Assembly (NCBI GenBank): GCA_900319465.1
Contig: ONOL01000001.1
Span: 32,843-96,842 of the forward strand
Reading direction: 5' to 3'
Length of the DNA stretch: 64,000 bases
DNA from: an uncultured Eubacteriales bacterium
Lineage (GTDB): Bacteria; Bacillota; Clostridia; Oscillospirales; Oscillospiraceae
In this document: positions 47,685-62,391 of the stretch, in pieces
Layout of the letters: the number at the start of each line of letters is the position of its first letter
How positions within the stretch are numbered: position 1 is the stretch's first letter
Translations under genes and position numbers: made by a program
The notes under the pieces: model-generated
What the model was told of the DNA's origin: nothing
Databases searched by the model: none
What the model saw: the letters and a program-made list of their open reading frames with translations, nothing else

Positions 47685-48200
47685 ATGACGATTGTTGAGA
47701 AAGCTGCCTATCTGAAGGGTTTGACCGAGGGCCTGGGCGTCGAGCCCGAATCCCGGGACGGAAAGCTCTGGAGCGCGCTGAACGATCTGCTGTCCGACAT
47801 GGCGCATGAGATCGAGGACCTCCAGGCTGCCAGCATGGATTACGCCGAGGTGATCGACGACATCTGCGAGGATCTGAGCTATCTCGAGGAGCTGACGGAC
47901 GATCTGGACGAGTCCGGGGACTTCGACGATTTCGAGGACGCTGAGGACGAGGCGGACGACAAGGTCTACGATCTGGCCGACTACGGCCTCGGCGGCGACT
48001 TCGACGAGGACGCCGGGGAAGGCGGGGAGCCGGAGGGGGACGACGAGGAAGTCGAGTACGACGGCGTGATGTACGATGTGACCTGCCCGAGCTGCGGCGA
48101 GGAGATCAGCTTCGACGAGGAGACGCTGGAGCTGGGCAGCATCACCTGCCCGAGCTGCGGCGAGGTGCTGGAGTTCGATCTGGGTGAGGATCGCGAGTAA
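47685..48200 (+). CDS. highly acidic protein with a C-terminal double CPSCG zinc ribbon
   Basis: 171 aa with an AGGAGG RBS. The N-terminus is helical, the centre is a long D/E-rich segment, and the end has ...VTCPSCGEEISFDEETLELGSITCPSCGEVLEF. Confidence 0.6.
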   Translation: MTIVEKAAYLKGLTEGLGVEPESRDGKLWSALNDLLSDMAHEIEDLQAASMDYAEVIDDICEDLSYLEELTDDLDESGDFDDFEDAEDEADDKVYDLADYGLGGDFDEDAGEGGEPEGDDEEVEYDGVMYDVTCPSCGEEISFDEETLELGSITCPSCGEVLEFDLGEDRE

Positions 48201-50027: not shown

Positions 50028-51650
50028 TTACAAAAGCTGTTTTCTCTCCAGCATATAGTCGAACCAGGCGACGAACTCCGCGCCGAGGCGCTTTACCAGC
50101 GCCCGCGCCTCCTCCGGCCGGGCGGCGGCGAGATACAGGCACTGCTGCGCGAGCTGGTAGCGCCGCGCCGTCGTGAAGCGCGCAAGCTCCTCGTCCGTAT
50201 ACTCCCCGAGCGCAGCAAGCTGCCGCTGCGCCTTGAAGAAACGGATAAAGCTCTCGGCGGTCTCCCGCCCGACGATCGGTTCGAGAAGCGAGAAGTCGTT
50301 GCGGGAGCTGTCCAGCGCTTTGGAGGCCATCTCCCAGCGGCGGGGGTCGGCGTTGCCCTCCGTGCCGGTGAAGGGGGTGCGCAGATAGAGGTCGTTGTTG
50401 GCCAGAAACTCCATCACGAAGGGGTTGATGCGGCTGCGAACCGCCCAGGGCATCCAGTTTTCCACGGTGGTGCGGATGTAGATATGGGCGAAGCGGCCGA
50501 AGAGCGGCTCCGCCAGATCATGGGCGGCGCTCGACTCGCTGCGGTCGTTGCCGGCGGCCACGATGCGGGCGTTTTCCGGCAGCGGCCAGCGGTTGTTCAC
50601 AAAGCGCTCCAGGACGATCTTGAAGATGACCGACTGGGTCTGCTTCGTGGCGTTGGTCAGCTCGTCGAAGAACAGGATGTGGAGCTTCCCGTCCTCACAG
50701 AGTCGCTCCAGCTTCACGAGCCACACGGGCTTCACGTCCACGATCTCGTCCCGCGCCTCGTTGTAGATGGCGCGGCCGTTGATGGTCTCCGGGTTCTCGT
50801 TCACCAGCTCGATGTCCAGCGCCTGCGGGTCGATCTGCCGGACGCGGTCGCTCTTGCCGTCGCCGGACAGGCCGTGCAGGAACACCGGGATGTTCGCCTC
50901 CACATAGGCGCGGATCAGGCTCAGCTCGTCGTGCTCCGCGACGCGGAAGGCCGCGTCCTGCGCGGCGCTCTCCCCCTCGAAGCACAGCTCCTTGAGGAAG
51001 TCCTCCCGCAGATACGCCGCCGCCTCGTCCCTCGACAGCCCGCCGAAGAGCGCCATGCAGCTCAGAAGCAGCGCCGCGTCCGGATCGTAGAGCCAGCGCA
51101 CGGGGCGCAGCTCGAGGAATACGCTCTCGCCCTCGCCCACCGGCGTGCCGTCGGAGAGGCGCACGAAGCCGTTGACGCCGCCCTGCCGGAGTGTGAGACG
51201 GATCAGCTCCTTCGACCCCAGCCGATAGACCGGGACGGGCTCGCCGCAGACACGGACGCGCCGCCCGGTGTCGGGAAGGCTCCCCCGCGCGTATTCCCGC
51301 GCCGCCATATCCCGCAGGCTGCTCTCCAGGACCGCGCCCGGGTAGCTGCCGTACTCGGCGGTGGTCACGCCGCCGTCCGTGCGGATGCGGCGCAGCAGCC
51401 GCTCCTCCCCCTGCTCCAGCAGCAGGGCGGGGCGCACCGCGCATACGTCCGCGCCGCCCGCGCGGCCGAAACGGTCCGCGCAGCCGTCGGCCAGATAGTA
51501 GTTGATCCCGCCGCCGGGTTCGTGGAGGAAACCGTCGTCCGGGGCGGTCATCAGCGCCAGATCCGAGGCGGGCGCGGCCGCGCCGACCCTTGCCAGCAGG
51601 GGCAGCGGCTTTCCGAAAACCTGCTCAAGTGATAAGAAAATCGATTTCAT
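50028..51650 (-). CDS. MoxR/AAA_5-like ATPase with a ~290-aa N-terminal region of unknown function
   Basis: 540 aa from the ATG at 51650. Walker A is GLSGDGKS, Walker B is LHILFFDELTNA, and a sensor-like VAAGND is present. I recognise no motif in the N-terminal half. Confidence 0.75.
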   Translation of the reverse strand: MKSIFLSLEQVFGKPLPLLARVGAAAPASDLALMTAPDDGFLHEPGGGINYYLADGCADRFGRAGGADVCAVRPALLLEQGEERLLRRIRTDGGVTTAEYGSYPGAVLESSLRDMAAREYARGSLPDTGRRVRVCGEPVPVYRLGSKELIRLTLRQGGVNGFVRLSDGTPVGEGESVFLELRPVRWLYDPDAALLLSCMALFGGLSRDEAAAYLREDFLKELCFEGESAAQDAAFRVAEHDELSLIRAYVEANIPVFLHGLSGDGKSDRVRQIDPQALDIELVNENPETINGRAIYNEARDEIVDVKPVWLVKLERLCEDGKLHILFFDELTNATKQTQSVIFKIVLERFVNNRWPLPENARIVAAGNDRSESSAAHDLAEPLFGRFAHIYIRTTVENWMPWAVRSRINPFVMEFLANNDLYLRTPFTGTEGNADPRRWEMASKALDSSRNDFSLLEPIVGRETAESFIRFFKAQRQLAALGEYTDEELARFTTARRYQLAQQCLYLAAARPEEARALVKRLGAEFVAWFDYMLERKQLL

Positions 51651-52758
51651 GCTTCTCTTTCTCCTCGTTGGGCTGACTGTAAATGACCCGCCCGCCCTTC
51701 GGGTGGATCGTCGTGTTGCCGTAGACGACCCAGATCGCGTCGCAGCGCTCCTCGGGCATCTCGGCAAAGCCGTCGGTAAAAATGATGCGGTTCTCCGCGT
51801 CGCCGGTGAAGGCGCGGATGGCGGCGCGGAAGTCCGTGCCGCCCGCGCCGTTGAGCGCCAGATTCTCGATGTCCTGCTCGCTCCTCACGTCCTGGAAGCC
51901 GTAGAAGCGGGTGTCGAAGCAGCCGACGCGCACCACGGCGTCCTGCCGCAGCAGGCCCTTTACGCCGCGCACAAAGGCGCGCAGCAGCTCCGCGTCCACG
52001 GAGGCGCTGGTATCGAGCAGGATCTCCGCGTGCGCGACCGGGTAGGCGCGAAACTCGTGCCGCAGCACGCCGTCGCGGATCGTGCTGCCGGGGAACCAGT
52101 CAAAATCCAGCTGCATGCTGGGCTCCAGCAGCTCCGCAAGCCCGGCTACGGCCGCGGCGATGCCCGGGTCCTCGATGCTGCGTGCGCGCGCCTCGCTCTC
52201 CCTGCCGGCCTGTCTGCTCGCGGGATCGGGCCGCAGCTCGCGGTCGAGGGGCTCCGTCTCCCGGTCGCTCTCCCCGCTCTCCTCTTGCTTTTGCAGCAGG
52301 AGCTCGTAGAGGCTCTCGGCGCTCTGCTCTCCCGCGCCGGGGAGGAAGACCGCGTCCTCCGGCAGGGCGAAGCCGTCCTCCCGGAGCATGGCGTTGACCA
52401 CCGCGCCGCTCGCCTTCTTCCAGAGCCGCGCGTCCTTCCCGCGGCCGCGGGCGAAATGCCTGAGCTGCAGGTGCAGAAGCTGCTGGGCGAGGTAGAAGCG
52501 GCGGCTCTCCTCGGTGTAATACGGCATCAGCCGCCCGTTATACAGGATCTGCCGCCCGTCGTTGTCCACCGGGCGGGCGCTCATCGACTCCCGGAAGCTG
52601 AGCGTCCGGATCCGCGCGCTCCACTGGGGATAGCGCTCTTCCAGCCAGTCGCAGGCGTCTTTGAAATCCACGGCGCTCCCCCCTTTCCGCCGGCCCGTTT
52701 CGCCGGCAGTATTTCCCATCCGTATCCGGCGAAACGCTTTCCGGCGCTTCGCCGCCAT
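51625..52758 (-). CDS. vWA-domain protein with an N-terminal DUF2201-like (degenerate metallopeptidase-like) region
   Basis: 377 aa if it starts at the ATG at 52758. The MIDAS motif DxSxS is present (ILLDTSASVD). The N-terminal region aligns to the DUF2201_N pattern, but the expected HExxH reads LHLQLRH. It overlaps the AAA gene start by 26 nt. Confidence 0.7.
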   Translation of the reverse strand: MAAKRRKAFRRIRMGNTAGETGRRKGGSAVDFKDACDWLEERYPQWSARIRTLSFRESMSARPVDNDGRQILYNGRLMPYYTEESRRFYLAQQLLHLQLRHFARGRGKDARLWKKASGAVVNAMLREDGFALPEDAVFLPGAGEQSAESLYELLLQKQEESGESDRETEPLDRELRPDPASRQAGRESEARARSIEDPGIAAAVAGLAELLEPSMQLDFDWFPGSTIRDGVLRHEFRAYPVAHAEILLDTSASVDAELLRAFVRGVKGLLRQDAVVRVGCFDTRFYGFQDVRSEQDIENLALNGAGGTDFRAAIRAFTGDAENRIIFTDGFAEMPEERCDAIWVVYGNTTIHPKGGRVIYSQPNEEKEKHEIDFLIT

Positions 52759-52793: not shown

Positions 52794-52851
52794 GCGCGCC
52801 GCCGAAGACCGCAGGCACAGAAGGCCGGATCGGGCTTCTGCGACAAGCTGA

Positions 52852-52875
52852 GGCGGCGTGCAGAAGCACGCCGCC
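52852..52875 (-). terminator. hairpin after the MMPL gene (terminator-like, without a U-tract)
   Basis: GGCGGCGTGC-AGAA-GCACGCCGCC, a 10-bp GC stem 26 nt after the stop. Confidence 0.4.
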
Positions 52876-52900
52876 TGTCGTATGTTCTGTTTTGCCCGAT

Positions 52901-55900
52901 TCAGGCGCCGAGCCCCTCGCCGCGGATCAGCAGCACGCCGTTGATCGCGGAGGAAACGGCCAGCAGCGCCGCAGCCAGCATCATCCAGGGGCTCAGGTCG
53001 ACACAGCGGCTGTGCCACAGGATGGCCGCCGCGGCGGAAAGCAGCATCGCCAGCATCGCCAGCACCGCCGGGAATCGCGTCCACCGGGTCGACAACAGCA
53101 GCGCCACAAGCGCGCAGAAGGCGGCGACGGCCAGCAGGATGGCCAGATATCCGGCGATGTGCTCCTGCTCCGCCGCGGCTTCCACCCGGCTGCGGAAGAA
53201 GAGCTCCGCCTGGTCCAGCGCCTCCAGCGGGCTTGCGTTCCGGCTGATCTCCTCTTTCAGACCCGGCTCGGCAAAGAGCTGATCCATCTGCTCGGCAAGC
53301 AGCGCCTCGTCGCCGCTCACGGCGTCGAGCGCGGACATGCTCTCGCTGAGCTCCTCGCGGTTCTGCGCGAGGGTCTCGCGCCCCTCCTCGAGCTGGGCGG
53401 CGGCCTCGTCGAGCGCCTGTTCGCCCTCCTTGAGCTGGGCGGCGGCGCTGTTGAGCTGCGCGCGGCCGTTGTCGATCTGCTGTCCGCCCGCGTTCAGTTC
53501 GGCGTAGCCGGCGTCCAGCTTGGCCTTGCCCGCGGCGAGCTGCGCCTCCGCGTCTTTCAGCTGGGCCTGCCCCGCGGCCTGCGCGGCATAGCCCTCGTCC
53601 AGCTTGGCCTTGCCCGCGGCGAGCTGCGCCTCCGCGTCTTTCAGCTGGGCTTCGCCCTCGGCGAGCTGTGCGTAGCCGGCATCCAGCCTGGCCTTGCCCG
53701 CGGCAAGCTGCGCCTCGCCGTCGGCGAGCTGCGCCTGCGCGGACTCGTACTGGGAGAGCAGGCCGTAAAAATCGGTGGCATCCGCCGCGGCCTGCGCCGC
53801 AGTCAGCGTTACGCCGAGCGCCAGCGCGGCGGCGGAATCCCCGGAGGAGACGGCGTGGTCATACTGCGCCTGCAGCTCCACCACGCGGTTGTGCAGCGCC
53901 AGCGCGCTCTGGTAGAGCGGGGTCACGGCGTCCAGCCTGGCCTTGCCCTCGTTGTATTTGGCAAGTCCCGCGTCGTATTCGGCCTGGCCCTGCGCAAGCT
54001 CCGCCTGCGCCGCGTCATACCGGGCCTTGCCCTCATTGTAGCGGGCGAGCGCCGCGTCGTACTCGGCCTGGCCCTGCGCAAGCTGCGCGGAGCCGGCCTC
54101 CAGCCGGGCTTTGCCCTCGTTGTACTGGGCGACGCCGGCGTCGTACTCGGCCTGGCCCTGCGCGAGCTTGGCCGCGCCTGCGTTGTATTCGCTGACGGCG
54201 CCCTGCAGCCTTGCGTTGCCCGCGTCGTACTTGGCCTTGCCCTCGTTATAGCTCTCCAGGCCCTCCTCGTACTGGGCTTCGCCCTCGGCCAGCTGCTCGG
54301 AGCCGATCTTGTCGGTCATGAGCTGCTCGGCGAAGGCGTAGGAGAGCGCGTCCTGCTCGGCGCGCGACGCCTCGACGCGGCGGGCAAGGGGACGCAGCGC
54401 GTCGGCCTGTTTGATCATATTGTCGGCATAGCGCTTCATGCTGTCGCGGTAGCTGCCAGCGGTGAGCATCCCGAAGGGCACGGCGAGGATCGCCAGCACC
54501 AGCGCAAGGCTCAGCAGGGCGGCGGCGAAGCTGCGGCGGTTGCGCGCGAAGAAGCCCGCGACGGCGGAGTTGTCCCGGTCGATGGTCGTGGCGGCGACGA
54601 AGCGGTCGCCCAGCACCAGGACCTGCGGCAGCGCGAAGAGGATCAGCAGCAGCGAGATACTGGTGCCGGTGCCGACGTAGTAGCCCATGCCGGCAATGAT
54701 GCACTGGGAGACCTGGAAGCCGATCAGCAGGCCGGCGCAGACCATCATGAGCCCGGAGGTGATGATGGTGGGGAACGCGACGTTCAGCGTGCTGATGATC
54801 GCCTCGCGGCGGTCCATGGTCTCGCGGAACTCCTTGTAGCGGGAGGAGACCACGATCGCATAGTCGATGTTCGCGCCCATCTGGATGGCGCTGACGATCA
54901 GGTAGCAGAGGAAGAAGACGTAATCGCCCCGAAGCGCGGCGATGGCAAAGTTGATCCATATGCTGCCCTGAATGACGAGGATCAGCAGCAGCGGCATACC
55001 GAAGGATTTAAAGGTGAAAAACAGGATCACCATGACCAGCACCAGCGACATGAGTCCCACCACCCGGTTGTCCGTGGCGAAGGATTCCTTGAAGTCCTTG
55101 GCGCTGACCGAGTCGCCGGTCAGGCAGACGCCGCCGTCGTAATAGTCCTCCGCCATCACGCGCACGCGCTTGAGGAAGGCGAAGGTCTCGTCCGACTGGA
55201 CCGGCAGATCCAGATCCAGCACGAGGCGGCTGTAATTCTCGCTCCGGAGCGTCGCGCTGACCATGCTCAGCCGGCTGTAAAGCCCGTCGATCATGTCCTT
55301 CTGCGCGGCCGTGAGCGCCACCGCGCCGTCCTCGGCATGATCGTGCAGGAAGAGGAAGAGGTCGAGCAGGCCTGCGCGGTAGCCCTCCAGATCCTCAGAC
55401 GCCGCGCTGTGCTCGCCCTGTCCGGCCGCGTAATAGGCGAAGATCGCCTGCGCGGTCGTCTCGTCGATCTCCGCGAGGCGGGAGAAGTCGCGGAAGCCGA
55501 TCTCGTCGCCGAGCTTCAGGCCGTCCTTGATCTCGATCGCGGCGATGCCCGTGGCGCTTTTGACCTCGCTGCACGCGGCGAGCTCGCCCAGCAGCGCTTT
55601 CTCCGAAGCGTAATCCCCCGCGGGCACGAGCACCGCGACCAGATTGCTGCTGCCGAACGCGTCCTCGATCTCGGCCTGCGCCATCTCCCGCTCCGTCTTG
55701 TGGAGCGCCGGGACGGCGTCCTGCGCGTAGGCGTAGTCGGTCTGTCCGAATAGATAGTACGCGCCCGCGACCAGGAGCACGAACAGGATGGGGACCACAT
55801 GGCGCGTGGCATAGGCAAATTTGCCCACAAAGCTGATCTTCGGCACGAAGCGCCTGTGCTTCGTGCGATCCATGGCCTTGCCGAAGAGGACCAGCAGCGA

Positions 55901-56827
55901 GGGCATGAACAGAAACACCGTCAGAAGGCTGCACAGGATGGCCTTGATCAGGCACACGCCCATGTCCACGCCGAGGCGGAATTTCATGAAGGTCATGGCC
56001 GTCAGGCCCGCGATGGTGGTCAGGCTGCTGGCAAAGATCTCCGGAATGGAGGCGGCCAGCGCCTTCTCCGCCGCCTCGCGGACCCCAAGCGTCTCATGCT
56101 CCTCCTTATAGCGGTTGCAGAGGATGATGGCGTAGTCCACCGAGAGCGCGAGCTGCAGGACGATGGCCACGGAATTGGAGACGAAGGAGATCGTGCCGAG
56201 GAGGAAGTGCGTCCCGAGGTTGACGACGGCCGCGACCAGGAAGGTCAGGATCATCACGGGGATCTCCGCGTAGGTGCTGGAGGTAAAGAGCAGGACCGCG
56301 AGCACCACGAGCACCACGAAGATCAGCACCGTGGACATCTGCTCGGCGAGAAGCGCGGCCAGACTGTAACCGACGCTGGAATAGACGGTGGTATCGTAGC
56401 CCGCCAGCAGCGACTCCACGGCCTTCAGGGCCTCGCGGCTGGACTCCGCTTTCGCCACGTCGGAGAAGGTCAGCTCAAAGAGCGCGTTCCCGTCCTTGTA
56501 GTGCGCCTGCGTGTCATCGTAGGAAACCAGGATCACGTCCCTGACCCCGGACAGGGTCTCCGAGAGCGCTTTCGCCTGTTCCTGAGAGATCCCGTGCACC
56601 ATGACCTTGGCCGTGCCGTAGGTGACGAATTCCCTCTCCATGATGTTCAGGCCCTGGTGCGCCTCCGCCTCCTCGGGAAGGTAGACCGTGATGTTGTTCT
56701 CCACCTTGATCCAGCGGACGGAGAAGACGGAAAACACGATCGCCGCGAGAAACAGCGCGCAGAAAAGCCATCGGTATTTGACAATGCAGCGGGCGATATT
56801 TTCGATAGCAGTTGATTTTTTGTTCAT
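52901..56827 (-). CDS. MMPL/RND-superfamily transporter fused to a long xxxLxxG heptad coiled-coil region and extra C-terminal TM helices
   Basis: 1308 aa from the ATG at 56827 (MNKKSTAIENIARCIVKYRWLF...). It has two MMPL-type 6-TM modules (e.g. LALSVDYAIILCNRYKEE and MGANIDYAIVVSSRYKEF). About 330 aa of Ala/Gln/Glu/Gly heptads follow (AQLAAGKAKLDEGY, AEYDAGVAQYNEGKARLEAG...), then 3 terminal TM segments. Confidence 0.8.
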   Translation of the reverse strand: MNKKSTAIENIARCIVKYRWLFCALFLAAIVFSVFSVRWIKVENNITVYLPEEAEAHQGLNIMEREFVTYGTAKVMVHGISQEQAKALSETLSGVRDVILVSYDDTQAHYKDGNALFELTFSDVAKAESSREALKAVESLLAGYDTTVYSSVGYSLAALLAEQMSTVLIFVVLVVLAVLLFTSSTYAEIPVMILTFLVAAVVNLGTHFLLGTISFVSNSVAIVLQLALSVDYAIILCNRYKEEHETLGVREAAEKALAASIPEIFASSLTTIAGLTAMTFMKFRLGVDMGVCLIKAILCSLLTVFLFMPSLLVLFGKAMDRTKHRRFVPKISFVGKFAYATRHVVPILFVLLVAGAYYLFGQTDYAYAQDAVPALHKTEREMAQAEIEDAFGSSNLVAVLVPAGDYASEKALLGELAACSEVKSATGIAAIEIKDGLKLGDEIGFRDFSRLAEIDETTAQAIFAYYAAGQGEHSAASEDLEGYRAGLLDLFLFLHDHAEDGAVALTAAQKDMIDGLYSRLSMVSATLRSENYSRLVLDLDLPVQSDETFAFLKRVRVMAEDYYDGGVCLTGDSVSAKDFKESFATDNRVVGLMSLVLVMVILFFTFKSFGMPLLLILVIQGSIWINFAIAALRGDYVFFLCYLIVSAIQMGANIDYAIVVSSRYKEFRETMDRREAIISTLNVAFPTIITSGLMMVCAGLLIGFQVSQCIIAGMGYYVGTGTSISLLLILFALPQVLVLGDRFVAATTIDRDNSAVAGFFARNRRSFAAALLSLALVLAILAVPFGMLTAGSYRDSMKRYADNMIKQADALRPLARRVEASRAEQDALSYAFAEQLMTDKIGSEQLAEGEAQYEEGLESYNEGKAKYDAGNARLQGAVSEYNAGAAKLAQGQAEYDAGVAQYNEGKARLEAGSAQLAQGQAEYDAALARYNEGKARYDAAQAELAQGQAEYDAGLAKYNEGKARLDAVTPLYQSALALHNRVVELQAQYDHAVSSGDSAAALALGVTLTAAQAAADATDFYGLLSQYESAQAQLADGEAQLAAGKARLDAGYAQLAEGEAQLKDAEAQLAAGKAKLDEGYAAQAAGQAQLKDAEAQLAAGKAKLDAGYAELNAGGQQIDNGRAQLNSAAAQLKEGEQALDEAAAQLEEGRETLAQNREELSESMSALDAVSGDEALLAEQMDQLFAEPGLKEEISRNASPLEALDQAELFFRSRVEAAAEQEHIAGYLAILLAVAAFCALVALLLSTRWTRFPAVLAMLAMLLSAAAAILWHSRCVDLSPWMMLAAALLAVSSAINGVLLIRGEGLGA
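53514..53651. repeat. intragenic direct repeat: two identical 54-nt copies spaced 84 nt apart
   Basis: GTCCAGCTTGGCCTTGCCCGCGGCGAGCTGCGCCTCCGCGTCTTTCAGCTGGGC occurs at 53514-53567 and again at 53598-53651. The 84-nt period equals 28 codons, or 4 heptads. Confidence 0.85.
53971..54168. repeat. intragenic 84-nt periodic repeat, three copies
   Basis: CGTCGTA(T/C)TCGGCCTGGCCCTGCGC(A/G)AGCT occurs at 53971, 54055 and 54139, with similar flanks (GGCCTTGCCCTCGTTGTA...). Confidence 0.8.
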
Positions 56828-56926
56828 CTTGTTGTTATTCCTCCGGAAGCGCGCTTTCCTTCTGCCGCTACCAAGTGATCGCAAGCGTTCGACGCGCAAG
56901 GTCCCCGGCCCGGGTCCGGGGCGGTC

Positions 56927-58291
56927 TCAGATACTCTCGTCGATCAGTTCCTTCAGGCTCCGCTCCGGATGGGCGACGCCGTTTTCGAGAAACTTCAGCA
57001 GGAAGGCGTGGAGCTTCTCGACGCTCTCGGGCTGCACGTAGTCCTGGGCGTACCAGTAGGTGGCGCAGAGCGTGCCGCGGCTGCTGTCGGGAAGGATCAT
57101 CAGATACAGCGGGGTCGGGATCAGGCCCTGGGAGACGAAATCGCCGTCGAGCTCAAGCTCGTCCCGGGGCAGCTCCATCGGCGGGAAATACGTCAGCCAG
57201 GTGGTGCCGTAAAAGCTGTCCGCAGGGGTCTTGTAGCGCCGGTAGACCTGGTTCATCACGTCGACGTTGATGACCTTGCAGATGCGCATGGCGTCTCCCT
57301 GCGCCTCATAGACCTTGTCGATGGCCTCGGAGAAGCTCTGGCTCTCGGGGATGACGATGCGCAGGAAGTGGGAGTTTGCCAGGTTCATGCCGCAGTTTTT
57401 CTCATAGAGCGTGCCGCGCGCGGCGAGCAGGCCGTTGACCATTACGTCATCGGTGCCGCTGACACGGCCGAGGTAGCTGCGAAGGGCCAGCATATAGAGG
57501 ATCTGCGGGGAAACATGGAAGCCGCGGGCGGCCTTGCTGACGCGGGTGACAAATTCCGGCGGCAGGGGATGGCGGATGGTCTCGCCGAAGAACTGCGTGA
57601 ACTGCTGGCGCCGGCCGCAGCGCGCGCCCTCGACGAACTCGGGAGAGCCGAGGCCGTTGACGGAGGTAAACTGCGGCTCGGTCGCGTAGTAGCGTTCCAG
57701 GAAGCTGTCGCGCTGCTTCTGCCAGCGCTCGCTGCCGGTGAACGCGCGGTCGTTCTCAATGAGCTTCCAGGGCTCGTCCGCCGGCTTGGGAAGCGCCTTC
57801 CCGTCGCGCATGGCGACGTATACCCGGCACACGTATTCCAGCGTCCGGAGCCCGGAATAGCCGTCCATGATGATGTGCTGGATCACGAAATACATACCCA
57901 GGTGGCCGTCGGGATAGTGGATCAGGCGGAAGCGGGCGAGGGGCAGGTCCTCGATCGTGCCGGGGAAGAACTCCTGGTTCCATTCGCGGAAGATCTCATC
58001 CTGGCGCGCCACTTCCTCTTCCGTAAACGTTACCGCCGTGACGGGAGCCGGCGCCTCGTCGCTCATGTACTGGCGCATTTTCCCGTCCTCGCCGCGGCAG
58101 ACGCGCACCCGGCAGTAGGGCAGACGCCGCACGCTCTCGGCGATGGCCTCGATGAGGAGCGCCTCGTCCATCTCGCTCCTGAAATCCACATGCGCGATGA
58201 GCTGCAGCGAGTCGATGGTCTGCAGCATATCCGCCAGGGCGACGATGCCCTCCTGCGCGCGGGTCAGGGGATAGGTTTTTCTTTCTTCCAT
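56927..58291 (-). CDS. stand-alone condensation-domain protein (NRPS C / PapA-like acyltransferase fold)
   Basis: 454 aa: PLTRAQEGI... with the active-site motif VIQHIIMDGYS (xHxxxDG). A GAGGAGAAGG RBS lies 14 nt after the carrier-protein stop. Confidence 0.8.
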   Translation of the reverse strand: MEERKTYPLTRAQEGIVALADMLQTIDSLQLIAHVDFRSEMDEALLIEAIAESVRRLPYCRVRVCRGEDGKMRQYMSDEAPAPVTAVTFTEEEVARQDEIFREWNQEFFPGTIEDLPLARFRLIHYPDGHLGMYFVIQHIIMDGYSGLRTLEYVCRVYVAMRDGKALPKPADEPWKLIENDRAFTGSERWQKQRDSFLERYYATEPQFTSVNGLGSPEFVEGARCGRRQQFTQFFGETIRHPLPPEFVTRVSKAARGFHVSPQILYMLALRSYLGRVSGTDDVMVNGLLAARGTLYEKNCGMNLANSHFLRIVIPESQSFSEAIDKVYEAQGDAMRICKVINVDVMNQVYRRYKTPADSFYGTTWLTYFPPMELPRDELELDGDFVSQGLIPTPLYLMILPDSSRGTLCATYWYAQDYVQPESVEKLHAFLLKFLENGVAHPERSLKELIDESI

Positions 58292-58304
58292 CTCAGCCTT
58301 CTCC

Positions 58305-58529
58305 TCAGACCTTTCCCGAGAGGTAATCGACCAGATCCTGAAGCGTAAAGATGCTTCTCAGATCCGCCGTCTCGATCTCGACGCCGAACTCGTCCTCGAG
58401 ATCGCCGACCATCGTCATCACGTCCAGCGAGCTCATGCCCAGATCCTCGATAAAGGTGGTCTCCGGCGTCAGGCCGGTTTCGGGCTCTTCGACGTAGTTG
58501 AGAAGAATTTCACAGATTTTTTCGTACAT
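58305..58529 (-). CDS. acyl/peptidyl carrier protein
   Basis: 74 aa from the ATG at 58529: MYEKICEILLNYVEE...FIEDLGMSSLDVMTMVGDLEDEFGVEI. The phosphopantetheine attachment site is DLGMSS. Confidence 0.8.
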   Translation of the reverse strand: MYEKICEILLNYVEEPETGLTPETTFIEDLGMSSLDVMTMVGDLEDEFGVEIETADLRSIFTLQDLVDYLSGKV

Positions 58530-58578
58530 GGTGCGTCTTCCTTTCACGACAAACTTTTATTTGGGGAGATGCGTGCTT

Positions 58579-60297
58579 TCACGCCTCGGCATCTTCCTCG
58601 GCGGTGATAAACCTGTATTTTTCGGGGGTGTCGATCAGGCGCAGCGCCTTGATCTGATTGGCGGAAGCGCCCTGGGAGATCCGCATGTCCCGATAGCGCC
58701 GGAACGCGCCGGCGCGGACGGGGCGCAGCTTTGCCGGGCCGATCTGGCCGTTTTCCCGATAAAAGCCGTAGTCCCAGCAATTGACGCCGAGCGCCTCTTC
58801 AAAGCGCGCCAGAAAGGCCTGCCTTTCCTCCCCGTCCAGCGGCCGCTCGGTCTCCAGGAAGAGCTCCAGATGCGGCGCGGCGGCCCCGATGTCGGCGTAA
58901 AGGCTGTAATCGAGCACGCGGGTGTCCACCGCCTGCGCGGCTTCCCGGACGGTATCGGCCAGATGGCGGCCCGTCAGGTGGATCCCGCAGATATCGGTGA
59001 GGTTGTTGGCCCGGTAGGCAAACTGGATGCAGGGCGTCTCGCCGATAAAATCGGTGACGCAGACCACGTCCAGCAGGCGGTAGCGGTAAAGGCCCGCGAG
59101 GTTTGTCAGCACGATCTCGTAATATTTGCCGCGTTCAAGCTCGCAGGGCAGCAGGATGCGGTCCGTTTTCGTCTCGCCGTCCTCCACGGGGAAGAACTCG
59201 AAGAAGCCGGAGTCCGGCAGCAGCAGGTAGCTCGGGTCGTCGAGCCTCAGGGCGACGCCCATGGTGCACTCGGAGGAGGAATAGAGGCTGTGGCAGTGCC
59301 TGACCCCGGGGTCGAAGAGCGTGTGCAGCTTCTCGGTAAAGGGCGTGAAGTCTCCCCCGCCGATGCAGACGAGAATGCTCATCTGTTTCCACACGCGCGA
59401 CATGACCGGCCCCTTCTCCGGCGTGGAGAAGATCTCCCGCAGCTCGGCGGCGCGGGCGGGGTCGGGGCGCAGGGCGCGCTCAAGCTTTCTGCGCGCTTTC
59501 GGCGAGACGGGCGCGTCGGGGCTGAGCGTGCCGGTCTCAATATCGCGCGCCAGCCGCTCCCAGTTTTCCAGGATGTAGGTCATCATGTCCAGCATACTGG
59601 AACTGAACACCGCCGAGGCGTACTTCAGGTCCGCATCGCGCAGGGCGTAGAGGGCCTTGAGGTATCTGGGATCCCCGATCCCCTCGCCGTCGAGAAGCGC
59701 GGCCGGGAAGGGGGTGAAGAGCGGCAGAAAGTACTTGACGCTGTTGAGCGAGTAGGAGGACACCATGCCCTGGTCCACCTTCCCCTTCTGCCGCTCCGCG
59801 TTCGCCTGGCCGACCGTGTCGATGATCACGAAGCCCTTCGCCGTCGCGGCGGGGACGCCGCGCTCGCGCAGGATGGGCAGGAGGTCCGAGAGCATGACGC
59901 AGATGCATTTGAAGTACGGGATATAGGTCTCCATGACCTGGGGGATCAGCTTGCGCTCCCGGGTGGTGCCGGAGGTCGTGGCAAAGTAATTGATCCGGCG
60001 GCCGGTCATCAGGCCCTGCTCCCCGTTCTCGGCGGTACGCCGCACGTAGTCGCGGTAATCGTCATAGTCGGAGACGGGAACCATCTTCCGGTAGTCCGAC
60101 ACGCTGCGGATCTCCGAAAAGCGGTACTTCCGCCCGTACTCGGTGTCCCGGCTGCGCCGCAGCAGCTTATTGAGCATCCGCTCGCCCGTCGCTCTCCCGC
60201 GGCGGGCCTTGCGCTCGTAATCCGCGCGGAAGAGCCTGCCGATCAGGCAGCCGCCATGGAACACAACGGCGTTTACGGCTTTGCTGAGAACATTCAT
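58579..60297 (-). CDS. GH3-family acyl-acid amido synthetase-like adenylating enzyme
   Basis: 572 aa: ...FSEIRSVSDYRKMVPVSDYDDYRDYVRRTAENGEQGLMTGRRINYFATTSGTTRERKLIPQ... This follows the GH3 N-terminal pattern (f...vP...Yed..p.i.r...Ge..il.......f..SSGTT.g..K.iP), and the size fits. Confidence 0.7.
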   Translation of the reverse strand: MNVLSKAVNAVVFHGGCLIGRLFRADYERKARRGRATGERMLNKLLRRSRDTEYGRKYRFSEIRSVSDYRKMVPVSDYDDYRDYVRRTAENGEQGLMTGRRINYFATTSGTTRERKLIPQVMETYIPYFKCICVMLSDLLPILRERGVPAATAKGFVIIDTVGQANAERQKGKVDQGMVSSYSLNSVKYFLPLFTPFPAALLDGEGIGDPRYLKALYALRDADLKYASAVFSSSMLDMMTYILENWERLARDIETGTLSPDAPVSPKARRKLERALRPDPARAAELREIFSTPEKGPVMSRVWKQMSILVCIGGGDFTPFTEKLHTLFDPGVRHCHSLYSSSECTMGVALRLDDPSYLLLPDSGFFEFFPVEDGETKTDRILLPCELERGKYYEIVLTNLAGLYRYRLLDVVCVTDFIGETPCIQFAYRANNLTDICGIHLTGRHLADTVREAAQAVDTRVLDYSLYADIGAAAPHLELFLETERPLDGEERQAFLARFEEALGVNCWDYGFYRENGQIGPAKLRPVRAGAFRRYRDMRISQGASANQIKALRLIDTPEKYRFITAEEDAEA

Positions 60298-60315
60298 AGA
60301 GCCATCGTTCCTCTC

Positions 60316-61968
60316 TTATTTGTTCGCGCTGCTCGTCGATTTCGCGTTGAGCAGATACCGTTTGATCTTCATGGTGGTGGTCTTCTCAAAGGGAAGGCTG
60401 CGCAGGCGGATCTTGTGGATGTTCTTGCTCAGGGGCATCTGCTTGTTGAAGAGCTTTACGTCCTCGGTCAGCCGCGTCTGCGCGTCCGGGTAGGCCTCCT
60501 CGTCCAGATAGAACTCCGCCGTAATGTCCCGGCCCTCCTCGTAGACCGCCACTTCCTTCACGTATTCGATCCGGCCGAGCTTCTCCTCCAACTCCTCGGG
60601 GGAGACGTTCTTGCCGTTGGCGAGGATGATGAGGTTTTTCTTGCGTCCGGTTATGTACAGGAAGCCGTCGCCGTCGAGGCGGCCGTAGTCCCCGGTCTTG
60701 AACCATTCGCCGTCAAAGGCCTCCGCGGTCGCCTCCGGGTCCTTGTAGTAGCCCTTCATCACGTTGCTGCCCGAGACGTAGATCTCGCCGATGCCGTTCT
60801 CGTCCGGGTCGTAGATCTTTATGCGGTTGCAGGGCAGGGGCTGCCCCACGCTGCCGAAGCGGAAATGCTCGTTCCGGTTCACCGCCACCACCGGCGAGCA
60901 CTCGGTGATGCCGTAGCCGTTGATGACGTTGATGCCCATGTCGTACAGGTCCCGCTGCAGCTTCTCGTCGAGCGCGGCGCCGCCGCAGATGATCATCTCC
61001 AGATTGCCGCCCAGACTGTTATGGACCAGGTGGAAAAGATGCTTGCGCAGGTCGATGCCGACCTTCATCAGGGCGCGGCTGACTGTGAGCGCGCGCTTGA
61101 GGTCGCCCTCCTTCCCCTGGTTGCGCGCGTTCTGCCAGATGCCCTTGTGCAGCATCTCCACCATCAGCGGCACCGCGGAGATGTTCTGCGGCTTGTTGCG
61201 GTTGAGATCCTTGACGACGCGCTTCATGTTGGGGCTGATGTGCGCGTCCACCGAGTAGAGGAAGGCCGCGAACATCGCCGACGCCCAGGAAAAGGTGTGG
61301 TTCATGGGCAGGAAGATCTGGGTGTTGCGCGCCGTGACGCATTTGCAGGTGGCCGCGACGTCACTGGCGAGGTTGCCGTGCGTGAGCATAACGCCCTTGC
61401 TCTTGCCCGAGGTGCCAGAGGTGTAGACGATGCAGGCCAGGGTATCCGGCTGTACGTCGACCCGATCGAAGGCCGTGCTGCCTTCCGCCAGCAGCCGCTC
61501 GCCCTCCGCGATATCCGCCTCCAGCTCTGCCAGCGGAAAAAAGGTGATCGGCGGCAGCGCGTCGCCCAGGCTCCGGAAACACTCGACCGTGCTCCGCAGC
61601 CGTTCCGAATAGAACAGCGCCGCACAGTCACAGCGGCGCACAAGCTCCGCCAGGTCCTTCTGCGGCAGCTCCTTGTCCAGCGGCACCGCGACGTTGCCGC
61701 TGTTGGTGACGCCGAAATACGCCAGGCACCACTCGGTGGAATTCTCCCCCAGCAGGGCGATGTTGCGCCCGGCATAGCCTCGCTCGAGAAGGAAGGTCCC
61801 CAGCGCGCGGATCTTTTTTGCCGCCTCGATGAAGCTCATCGGCTCGTCGTTCTGACGGCCGGTATAGAAAATGGTGTGCTCCCCGCCGTTCTCCTCGCCG
61901 TAACGGATCAGGCCGCGCAGCGTATCCACGTCCGGGATGTCGTAATAGGGATAAGGCCGGTTTTTCAT
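60316..61968 (-). CDS. AMP-binding enzyme (long-chain fatty acyl-CoA / acyl-AMP ligase, FadD-like)
   Basis: 550 aa from the ATG at 61968 (GGAGG RBS). Motifs: YTSGTSGKSKGVMLTH, GYGITECS, FKTGDYGRLDGDGFLYITGRKKNLIILANGKNVSPEELE. Confidence 0.85.
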   Translation of the reverse strand: MKNRPYPYYDIPDVDTLRGLIRYGEENGGEHTIFYTGRQNDEPMSFIEAAKKIRALGTFLLERGYAGRNIALLGENSTEWCLAYFGVTNSGNVAVPLDKELPQKDLAELVRRCDCAALFYSERLRSTVECFRSLGDALPPITFFPLAELEADIAEGERLLAEGSTAFDRVDVQPDTLACIVYTSGTSGKSKGVMLTHGNLASDVAATCKCVTARNTQIFLPMNHTFSWASAMFAAFLYSVDAHISPNMKRVVKDLNRNKPQNISAVPLMVEMLHKGIWQNARNQGKEGDLKRALTVSRALMKVGIDLRKHLFHLVHNSLGGNLEMIICGGAALDEKLQRDLYDMGINVINGYGITECSPVVAVNRNEHFRFGSVGQPLPCNRIKIYDPDENGIGEIYVSGSNVMKGYYKDPEATAEAFDGEWFKTGDYGRLDGDGFLYITGRKKNLIILANGKNVSPEELEEKLGRIEYVKEVAVYEEGRDITAEFYLDEEAYPDAQTRLTEDVKLFNKQMPLSKNIHKIRLRSLPFEKTTTMKIKRYLLNAKSTSSANK

Positions 61969-62105
61969 GCCGCAAGCCTCCGAACAGTTGACTGACAATA
62001 ATCTAACAATGCATCCGGGATATTGCTTTGTTTTTCCTGTTTTTCTTCAAAAAACGGTAAGAAACAAGCTCTTTTCCCGATGGTATACTATCACGAATCT
62101 ATCCG

Positions 62106-62134
62106 ATTGTACAGCAGGAATCCGGGATTTACAA
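62106..62134 (-). promoter_or_regulatory. sigma-A-type promoter for the ligase-GH3-carrier-C-MMPL operon
   Basis: Minus strand: TTGTAA, 17 nt, TACAAT, followed by an unusually AT-rich ~130-nt leader. Confidence 0.45.
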
Positions 62135-62391
62135 GGAAAAAAAATGAGAATTCCGGCCGCCGGTTTTCGCTCCGCCCGCCGCTCTGGAAAGCGCCGCGCG
62201 TCAGCGATTCGGTTTTCCTATCCTTTCCAGACGGAAAAAATAGGGAAGAAAATGGCGCAAAACCCCCTCCCCCCTCTTTCTTCCCGGAGAGAATGGGTGT
62301 ATAATATAAAAAAACGAAAGGATCGAAGGTGATTTTTGGAAGAAACGACCAAAATCCCCGCGTCAGCGTATCCTGTGATTTCTTATTATAG

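Follow-up and report, generated by a model that had tools for sequence, protein, structure and literature searches.

A candidate operon for an exported amide-linked lipid conjugate in an uncultured Oscillospiraceae bacterium couples fatty-acid-amide-type enzymes with a GH3 amido synthetase and an MMPL exporter

Fatty acid amides (FAAs) of gut Clostridia are potent ligands of host receptors. Their synthesis is reportedly carried out by "CTA" cassettes that resemble nonribosomal peptide synthetases (NRPSs), examples of which are said to include those of Chang et al. 2021, OaaA/OaaACP/OaaC of Coprococcus eutactus, and ebf/ecf of Elmassry et al. To our knowledge, FAAs have so far been one-step products of such C-T-A sets, mostly from Lachnospiraceae, and we know of no described route for their export; nor do we know of any bacterial GH3 enzyme of established function other than OlsH (2025). 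The characterised Clostridia clusters hold condensation (C), carrier (T), and ligase (A) genes only, some with an additional phosphopantetheinyl transferase (PPTase), lipid-transport-like protein, and hydrolase (PMC10871352, PMC13310621, PMC13060934); the extra genes of ebf/ecf encode a PPTase, an SCP2-like protein, and a hydrolase. The C domains of FAA systems have been placed next to starter C domains, and the acceptor used by OaaC is 5-aminovalerate, which has a free carboxylate (PMC13310621). OlsH forms a lipid-amino acid amide with ATP alone (PMC12493201).

Here, we describe a locus in which relatives of these enzymes stand side by side with a large MMPL transporter. The DNA analysed, referred to as the window, is a stretch of 64,000 nucleotides (nt) from an uncultured Eubacteriales bacterium of the Oscillospiraceae (assembly GCA_900319465.1, contig ONOL01000001.1, positions 32,843 to 96,842 of the forward strand). 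Translation of the window places five co-directional open reading frames (ORFs) on the minus strand at 52901-61968, in the order A-GH3-T-C-MMPL. Our preferred reading, of moderate confidence, is that they form an operon whose products synthesise a lipid conjugate with an amide linkage and export it. In this reading, the ligase, carrier, and condensation enzyme would follow the logic of FAA synthesis, GH3 would extend the product, and the MMPL protein would be a dedicated exporter. What is new here is that, within a wider A-T-C-MMPL family not described before, GH3 appears as an optional module and the C gene is hypervariable and swappable. The features of the locus, with start codons as picked by independent gene callers on identical metagenome contigs, are as follows:

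62106..62134, minus strand: promoter-like element, TTGTAA-17 nt-TACAAT, matching at 9 of 12 positions
61969..62105, minus strand: AT-rich 5' leader, 41% GC, with GGAGG 8 nt before the ATG of A
60316..61968, minus strand: A, predicted AMP-binding (ANL) acyl ligase, 550 amino acids (aa), PF00501
58579..60297, minus strand: GH3 acyl-acid amido synthetase by family, 572 aa, PF03321 with PF23571 and PF23572
58305..58529, minus strand: T, predicted acyl carrier protein (ACP), 74 aa, PF00550
56927..58291, minus strand: C, predicted free-standing condensation enzyme, 454 aa, PF00668
52901..56827, minus strand: predicted MMPL/resistance-nodulation-division (RND) exporter, 1308 aa, PF03176 in two stretches
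53150..54470, minus strand: predicted coiled-coil module of the MMPL protein, residues about 790-1225
52851..52876, minus strand: GC-rich hairpin, probable terminator, 25 nt past the MMPL stop

A preliminary description, made from the letters alone, had proposed five tightly spaced minus-strand genes with gaps of 18, 49, 13, and 99 nt from A to MMPL, encoding a ligase, a GH3-family amide-forming enzyme, a 74-aa carrier with a DLGMSS attachment site, a free-standing condensation domain with an intact xHxxxDG motif, and an MMPL transporter. All of the ORFs lie where it had put them and the gaps are exact. Profile searches assigned all five families with scores that clear the Pfam gathering cutoffs, and the individual motifs and the fold model described below agree with its assignments.

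The condensation enzyme matched PF00668 at 1.5e-26, above the gathering score, and its motif reads QHIIMDG, in which H139 and D143 are invariant in 21 homologues. Its best solved relative is 12KH, which is OaaC, the FAA condensation enzyme of C. eutactus (80 bits, E value of 9.4e-22, residues 4-451 of 454), and the PDB match that ranks after it, the starter C domain of CDA, reaches 40 bits. Because OaaC leads by 80 to 40 bits, in agreement with the published adjacency of FAA and starter C domains, the enzyme appears, on its best solved relative, to belong with the FAA condensation enzymes. The statement in the preliminary description that stand-alone C, carrier, and ligase sets of gut Clostridia make fatty acid amides is correct. 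The same description had called the enzyme PapA-like. That likeness stands for the logic of the pathway but not for the family: no PapA_C (PF16911) match was found at an E value of ≤0.01, no PapA chain was among the PDB matches with E values of ≤1e-3, and the protein resembles FAA and starter C domains instead.

The ligase matched PF00501 at 1.2e-65, above the gathering score, and its translation contains the usual ANL signatures YTSGTSGKSKG, GRKKN, and a C-terminal MKIKR. Its top NCBIfam model is long-chain-fatty-acid-CoA ligase, which was below its cutoff, as was every equivalog model. Among solved relatives in the PDB search, feruloyl-CoA synthetase ranked top, and fatty-acyl-CoA synthase, FadD13, and FadD5 were nearly equal in score. 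We regard A as a ligase of the fatty-acyl-CoA-synthetase type that is presumed to load the carrier. The carrier itself matched PF00550 at 1.6e-12, above the gathering score, while NCBIfam ACP models matched below their cutoffs. Its phosphopantetheine site is DLGMSSLD, and relatives conserve the serine preceding LD, with (N/T)SLD in their carriers at the same place.

By its domains and motifs, the GH3 protein is a complete, true GH3 acyl-acid amido synthetase. All three Pfam domains were present, with the N-terminal domain at 4.6e-60 (203.8 bits), GH3_M at 1.5e-22 (79.9 bits), and GH3_C at 7.8e-20 (72.2 bits), against cutoffs of 23.6 each. The protein aligned over its full length with plant GH3 structures (E value of 1e-50, 176 bits, 23-27% identity). 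An AlphaFold model (mean pLDDT of 86.2) found AtGH3.6 in Foldseek with an E value of 4e-38 and superposed on AtGH3.15 with a TM score of 0.82 and an rmsd of 4.0, and the model predicts that the two-domain GH3 fold is present. The nucleotide motifs are TSGTT(x4)K(x2)P at 107-119, YSSSE at 339-343, and YRYRLLD at 404-410; these align with the motifs of OsGH3.8, and G110, K116, P119, Y339, S342, E343, Y404, R405, and D410 are invariant in 25 homologues. The sole NCBIfam match was OlsH (NF052613), at 91.2 bits versus a cutoff of 620, and no OlsI-type alpha/beta-hydrolase gene was present in the cassette or its flanks. The protein was rejected as an OlsH orthologue on both counts.

These assignments bear on the nature of the acyl group, which could be aromatic or phenylpropanoid (ferulate or phenylpropionate from plant walls), with a small aryl-amide as the product. 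The high rank of feruloyl-CoA synthetase among the relatives of A, the failure of all fatty-acid ligase models to reach their cutoffs, and the fact that the top solved relatives of GH3 are plant enzymes conjugating aromatic acids would each fit such a product. We nevertheless consider it quite improbable, given that fatty-acyl-CoA synthase, FadD13, and FadD5 score nearly as well in the same PDB search, that the best NCBIfam model is a long-chain-fatty-acid ligase, and that C lies closest to OaaC, an enzyme that uses fatty acyl groups, and to starter C domains. In addition, MMPL-type pumps typically export lipids.

To place the cassette among its relatives, about 140 loci were gathered via GH3 and C homologues and surveyed in tblastn searches that used the five window proteins plus neighbouring proteins of related loci as queries; a genome scan with the single GH3 protein gave no relative, and a repeat with an alignment succeeded. 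The gene set recurs in many unrelated contigs, far beyond chance. Representative arrangements, with identities to the window proteins, are listed here:

L007: A-GH3-T-C-GH3-GtrA-MMPL-MMPL; GH3 78% identical
L099 and L100: A-T-C-GH3-MMPL; C 54% identical
L009: A-C-GH3-T-ABC-FtsX; GH3 47% identical
L011-13 and L016 (the latter a Mogibacterium metagenome-assembled genome [MAG]): GH3-A-GH3-C-T-MMPL, after which comes a separate coiled-coil protein of 888 aa; GH3 43-44% identical

Synteny among related genomes thus held down to 43% GH3 identity and through several gene orders. The preliminary description had treated C, carrier, ligase, GH3, and MMPL as one unit. The combination does recur in relatives, but the conserved unit is smaller. 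Specifically, thirteen loci consist of A-T-C-MMPL with no GH3 gene; they contain the closest relatives of C in the range of 38-47% identity, together with A at 68-83% and MMPL at about 58-71% identity to the window proteins, and the coiled coil is found in the complete MMPLs. Because these thirteen loci carry the core in the absence of GH3, the gene content identifies A-T-C-MMPL as the conserved core and GH3 as an optional module, present in 0, 1, or 2 copies and inserted between A and T or after C.

The C gene varies in a different manner. Across the family, C is only 38-76% identical to the window protein, whereas A, T, and MMPL stay at 58-86% (70-86% for A, 66-84% for T, and 58-66% for MMPL). 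The clearest case is provided by L096 (8985-10420) and L098 (8997-10390), whose DNA is 99% identical through A and T, up to the final base of T, and becomes so again shortly ahead of MMPL. The C genes enclosed by these stretches are unalignable as DNA and encode proteins that are 38% identical, in the midst of the same flanking genes. In this pair, C alone has been exchanged, in a precise allelic replacement. Furthermore, the C protein of L099, a cassette with GH3, is closest (53%) to that of L096, a cassette that lacks GH3. On these comparisons, C is the predicted variable specificity element of the cassette family. The acyl-loading part (A and T) and the exporter are constant while the head-group enzymes (C and GH3) are swapped, gained, and lost, and the family probably produces diversified lipid head groups. 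In one further locus (L112:2-2606), a second C gene precedes the carrier, in the order C-T-C-MMPL; there, C is duplicated and no GH3 is added.

The association of GH3 with this machinery extends beyond the immediate family. In a quick neighbour-joining tree, the window GH3 fell in a clade in which every member is linked to C, and most are linked to A, T, and an exporter as well. Another four GH3 clades also have GH3 adjoining C, A, or T genes, the arrangements number at least five, and the linkage is therefore taken to be functional. It might be argued that the five genes are chance neighbours with no joint function, as they are known here from genes alone and the promoter match is at chance level. 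Recurrence of the combination at GH3 identities of 43-78%, in rearranged orders and with differing exporter types, together with the tight spacing and a single terminal hairpin after the last gene, makes this extremely improbable. A distinct arrangement was seen in Acutalibacteraceae (L040:6566-7939, also L041, L044, and L052), where A-C-T-GH3 is followed by a second, distant HxxxDG acyltransferase with weak matches to Condensation, PapA_C, and Transferase; these loci have a second A gene on the opposite strand, 50% identical to the window A.

A sister GH3 clade, mostly from Ruminococcus MAGs, has a different composition. Its cassettes (about 14 loci, L010, L017, L019, L020, L022, L024-L028, L033, L037, and L059 among them) consist of GH3, an Ntn hydrolase of the choloylglycine-hydrolase family (CBAH/AAT), an ABC ATPase, and an FtsX permease of the MacB type that is very long, to which an LPG_synthase_TM protein and an ATP-grasp ligase are sometimes added. 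In these loci, GH3 is accompanied by an exporter in the absence of C, T, or A, and A-T-C-MMPL exists without GH3, so that each route is self-sufficient somewhere. It is conceivable on this basis that GH3 and A/T/C each amidate scavenged acids in parallel, that the MMPL protein exports both kinds of product, and that the system possibly detoxifies rumen fatty or plant acids. Secreted lipase- or esterase-like neighbours would also suggest scavenged substrates. Sharing of a pump does not, however, predict that GH3 and C are direct neighbours in four more clades and at least five orders, and the window GH3 sits inside the A-T-C unit, between A and T. Parallel routes are consequently an unlikely explanation for the window cassette. 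Secreted lipase-, esterase-, or alpha/beta-hydrolase-like proteins were encoded next to GH3/C cassettes at L018:6364-8910, L094:6921-8465, and L009:13735-15740. Because such proteins adjoin several cassettes, there are hints that the acyl substrates are set free from external lipids.

We return to our preferred reading of one pathway for an amide-linked lipid conjugate, and the following course of reactions can be outlined for it. From its family, A would adenylate a carboxylic acid and load it onto the phosphopantetheine arm of T; the likeliest substrate is a rumen fatty acid of medium or long chain length. The condensation enzyme, like its closest solved relative OaaC, would then take the acyl group off the carrier and attach it to the amine of a small molecule that serves as a free acceptor. 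This acceptor would also carry a carboxylate (an amino acid or omega-amino acid), which GH3 would adenylate and couple to a second amino acid or amine to give an N-acyl "dipeptide-like" head group. The MMPL protein would remove the product from the membrane, and its long coiled coil may carry the product across the cell wall, by analogy with MmpL4, MmpL5, and MmpL10. That C and GH3 act on one molecule is suggested by their being neighbours in four other GH3 clades. Two amide-forming enzymes acting on the same molecule would need a bifunctional linker. The option that we favour is an amino-carboxylate, acylated by C on the amine and then extended by GH3 on the carboxylate to yield acyl-X-Y; the other is a diamine or diamino acid that receives one amide per nitrogen.

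Three observations lead us to favour a course in which C acts before GH3. The core occurs with 0, 1, or 2 GH3 genes, as would be expected for an add-on extension; the C protein of L099, from a cassette with GH3, is nearest to that of L096, from one that lacks it; and OaaC uses 5-aminovalerate, leaving a carboxylate free. Taken further, and only tentatively, the family could be a modular lipopeptide route that needs neither ribosome nor NRPS modules. A, the ACP, and C would make an N-acyl amino acid, one or two GH3 enzymes would extend its C terminus by one residue each, C replacement and GH3 gain or loss would diversify the head group, and the MMPL protein with its tube of ~440 coiled-coil residues would deliver the product through the Gram-positive wall.

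The main rival to this order, which we consider rather unlikely, is that GH3 acts first on the way to a two-tailed aminolipid. GH3 would join a free (hydroxy) fatty acid to a diamino or hydroxy amino acid, A/T/C would add a second chain to the amine or hydroxyl, and the MMPL protein would flip or export the product. A precedent for such a second acylation exists in mycobacteria, where free-standing enzymes of the PapA type add second acyl chains before MmpL export. The sister cassettes pair GH3 with LPG_synthase_TM (lipid-flippase-type) and lipase-like proteins, and OlsH, the only NCBIfam model matched by the window GH3, catalyses exactly this initial reaction on free fatty acids in the presence of ATP and Mg2+ (PMC12493201). 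On the other hand, the OlsH match reached 91 bits versus 620, the OlsI-type partner is missing, and the window GH3 is nearer to plant GH3s (176 bits). The gene content of relatives also argues against GH3 acting first, as C must take a simple free acceptor in the thirteen A-T-C-MMPL cassettes that lack GH3, and cassettes with two GH3 genes would require three acyl chains.

Several points weigh against the pathway that we prefer, in which A, T, and C make an acyl conjugate that GH3 extends. All of its chemical steps are read from genes alone, and the order of C and GH3, which is unreadable from sequence, is drawn from the pattern of 0, 1, or 2 GH3 genes. More than one kind of acyl group is conceivable, as all NCBIfam matches of the ligase are below cutoff and its top solved relative is feruloyl-CoA synthetase. 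FAA C domains reportedly prefer amines and exclude proteinogenic and nonproteinogenic amino acids (PMC13310621), and the range of carboxylate-bearing acceptors is therefore narrowed. In Legionella, knockout of a GH3 gene embedded in a biosynthetic cluster left the product unchanged (PMC5640695), so that co-location is no proof of participation. Additionally, tblastn of the window with unverified Sfp and AcpS query sequences gave nothing significant for a PPTase, and the GH3 tree, as a quick neighbour-joining tree, has no support values.

The exporter matched PF03176 at 2.3e-38, in two stretches, and reached none of the named subfamilies, scoring 121.7 versus 351.9 bits for HAE3 (TIGR00921), 110.8 versus 874.7 for actII/MMPL (TIGR00833), 33.3 versus 1400 for MmpL3, and 48.2 versus 751.85 for HpnN. 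Its hydropathy profile follows a 12-transmembrane (TM) core, with TM1, a loop, TM2-6, TM7, a loop, and TM8-12. Past this core are an extra TM segment, a coiled coil of about 440 aa, and three terminal TM segments. The coiled coil is composed of heptads of the type xxxLxxG, and its coding region (53383-54183) is made of 21/42/84-nt tandem repeats. The hydropathy profile, together with positive charges beside the TM segments, predicts that the coiled coil lies outside the cytoplasm, and by analogy with MmpL5 and MmpL10 it may be an export tube or an oligomerisation device.

Coiled-coil modules like that of the MMPL protein (blastp, 1e-17 to 1e-18) were found in the FtsX permease of L009 and in the 888-aa protein of L012, and the module seems to travel with the pathway rather than with one transporter type. 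At L009:9478-13692, the module lies inside an unrelated MacB-type permease of 1404 aa, and at L012:11372-14038 it is a separate, N-terminally anchored 888-aa protein beside a short (692-aa) MMPL. Length variants were also noted. P0170, a member of the 90% cluster of the MMPL protein, is 28 aa shorter, equal to one 84-nt repeat unit, and in L005 the MMPL frame is broken in the repeat region, with a 100-nt segment in place of 29 nt. The frame break in L005 is a probable assembly artefact; the repeat-length differences in P0170 and L005 reflect either repeat-number polymorphism or assembly trouble.

The boundaries of the locus were also considered. The hairpin at 52851-52876 has a perfect 11-bp stem (-27.7 kcal/mol, z = -4.9), and 0 of 200 shuffles fold as well; no T-tract follows the stem. 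Terminator-like sites numbered six in the region versus 7.2 expected, with none inside an intergenic gap. The next gene downstream has its own promoter-like site (52793-52765), which matches at 10 of 12 positions and is better than that of the cassette; the hairpin and this separate site fit a 3' operon boundary after MMPL. Upstream, the preliminary description had placed the genes behind one promoter-like element and an AT-rich leader. The leader was confirmed, as 61969-62105 has 41% GC versus 64% for the cassette, and an Rfam scan of it for a riboswitch or T-box gave nothing credible, only sub-threshold microRNA noise. The claim of a single promoter has weak backing: there are two promoter-like matches of 9/12 quality in the region versus 1.5 expected by chance, and the element at 62134-62106, being no better than chance, does not count as evidence on its own. 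Since the gaps are tight, the hairpin is terminal, and the flanking functions are unrelated, the five genes appear to form one unit and are probably one transcript.

The downstream flank encodes a DUF2201 metallopeptidase/VWA protein, a 540-aa protein with no Pfam family, BioY, and BirA, and the upstream flank contains a divergent pyruvate:ferredoxin oxidoreductase (PFOR) gene. All of these were rejected as cassette members, as their functions are unrelated and they are missing beside the cassette in other species; the hairpin and the separate promoter-like site of the next gene also speak against membership. Directly downstream of the cassette, the gene for the 364-aa DUF2201 protein, a putative metallopeptidase with a VWA-like domain, overlaps that of the 540-aa protein (50028-52719, minus strand), and conservation of this pair is confined to the present species. 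Ahead of the promoter-like site of the cassette is a terminator-like stem with a T-run (62242-62273, minus strand), in an AT-rich stretch of ~480 nt that is common to the cassette and the divergent PFOR gene; it had no Rfam match. Further away, at 47685-48200 on the plus strand, the window encodes a very acidic 171-aa protein, unrelated to the cassette, with a C-terminal zinc-ribbon motif and sub-threshold Pfam zinc-ribbon matches.

Copies of the locus are widespread in metagenomes. Four proteins were looked up (A, GH3, C, and MMPL), and each had an exact match in the protein collection, under generic names only. GH3 and C are identical to MBQ5405760 and MBQ5405762 of an uncultured Oscillospiraceae MAG, and MBQ5405759 and MBQ5405763 of the same MAG are variants of A and MMPL within their 90% clusters. 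The same 10.5 kb was present on many metagenome contigs, from many samples, at 99.9% identity. The index of the collection lists the GH3 protein for 376 blocks; in all six places among the matches listed, the gene order was identical. Ruminant rumen and gut assemblies are the source of some of the contigs with exact proteins and of the relatives found; a cultured bacterium with a cassette of this type did not turn up among the loci collected.

Together, these data suggest that FAA-related machinery extends to rumen and gut Oscillospiraceae and Mogibacterium-type genomes, where it has its own large lipid pump and can be extended by GH3 ligases. The exchange of C between otherwise identical loci points to selection for chemical diversity, as for molecules that act between microbes or between microbe and host. 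If the modular lipopeptide route outlined above is true, it would provide the first carrier-protein-linked role for a bacterial GH3 and the first exporter dedicated to fatty acid amides of Clostridia. The locus is small (9.3 kb) and could yield new N-acyl lipids, a use for GH3 in biocatalysis, and a Gram-positive counterpart of the coiled-coil tube of mycobacterial MmpL proteins.

In comparison with mycobacterial FadD/PapA/MmpL systems (sulfolipid, phthiocerol dimycocerosate, and trehalose polyphleates, with MmpL4/5 for mycobactins), the cassette shares a ligase that loads a carrier, an acyltransferase of the C fold, and export by an RND pump of the MMPL family. It differs in having no polyketide synthase (PKS), no PapA_C match, and no score that reaches the cutoff of an NCBIfam subfamily of MMPL. 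The bonds made by PapA enzymes are mostly esters, with trehalose or phthiocerol as the acceptor. The coiled-coil domains of mycobacterial MmpL proteins are inserted in a periplasmic loop, whereas that of the window protein follows the 12-TM core and lies between extra TM segments. MmpL4, MmpL5, and MmpL10 have extracytoplasmic coiled-coil domains, and that of MmpL5 is a trimeric tube (PMC12501195, PMC12183618).

The GH3 component has three points of comparison. Plant GH3s (OsGH3.8, VvGH3-1, and AtGH3.5/6/11/12/15) are homologous over their full length and have the same two-domain fold and the motifs TSGTT...K..P, YxSSE, and YRxxxD; unlike them, the window GH3 is bacterial and lies in an operon with a carrier pathway and a pump, and phytohormone substrates are unlikely. 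OlsH/OlsI of Singulisphaera acidiphila (PMC12493201) represents a bacterial GH3 in a lipid-amide context with the three nucleotide motifs, and a similar ATP-dependent, carrier-independent chemistry would be expected for the window GH3, which by contrast is embedded in a carrier-protein pathway, is linked to an exporter, lacks OlsI, and scores higher against plant GH3s. Finally, the legionellol cluster lpg2225-2234 of Legionella pneumophila, whose product is a secreted ornithine-derived lipid surfactant, has GH3, acyl-CoA synthetase/ligase genes, an ACP, and an efflux pump, but KASIII/PKS-type enzymes and a major facilitator superfamily (MFS) pump take the place of the C domain and MMPL (PMC5640695). 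It is the nearest GH3-containing cluster that emerged from full-text literature searches, in which no report of C, carrier, A, GH3, and MMPL together was found; the preliminary description, which knew of no characterised system with this combination, agrees with the literature searched.

The closest resemblance is to the FAA systems themselves. Shared features are the free-standing A, carrier, and C proteins, an xHxxxD motif kept with a non-canonical first residue, and a host among animal-gut Clostridia. The motif of FAA enzymes is (D/H)HxxxD followed mostly by S or A, with G in 17% (PMC13310621), versus QHIIMDG in the window protein, and the gene order is C-T-A (PMC13060934) versus A-GH3-T-C. 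The window cassette further differs in the low identity of its C protein to OaaC, in its host (Oscillospiraceae versus Lachnospiraceae), and in the addition of GH3 and a 1308-aa MMPL, neither of which is reported for FAA clusters. Overall, we conclude that the cassette appears to work like the C-T-A systems of fatty acid amide synthesis, yet is not a member of the three-gene family as described.

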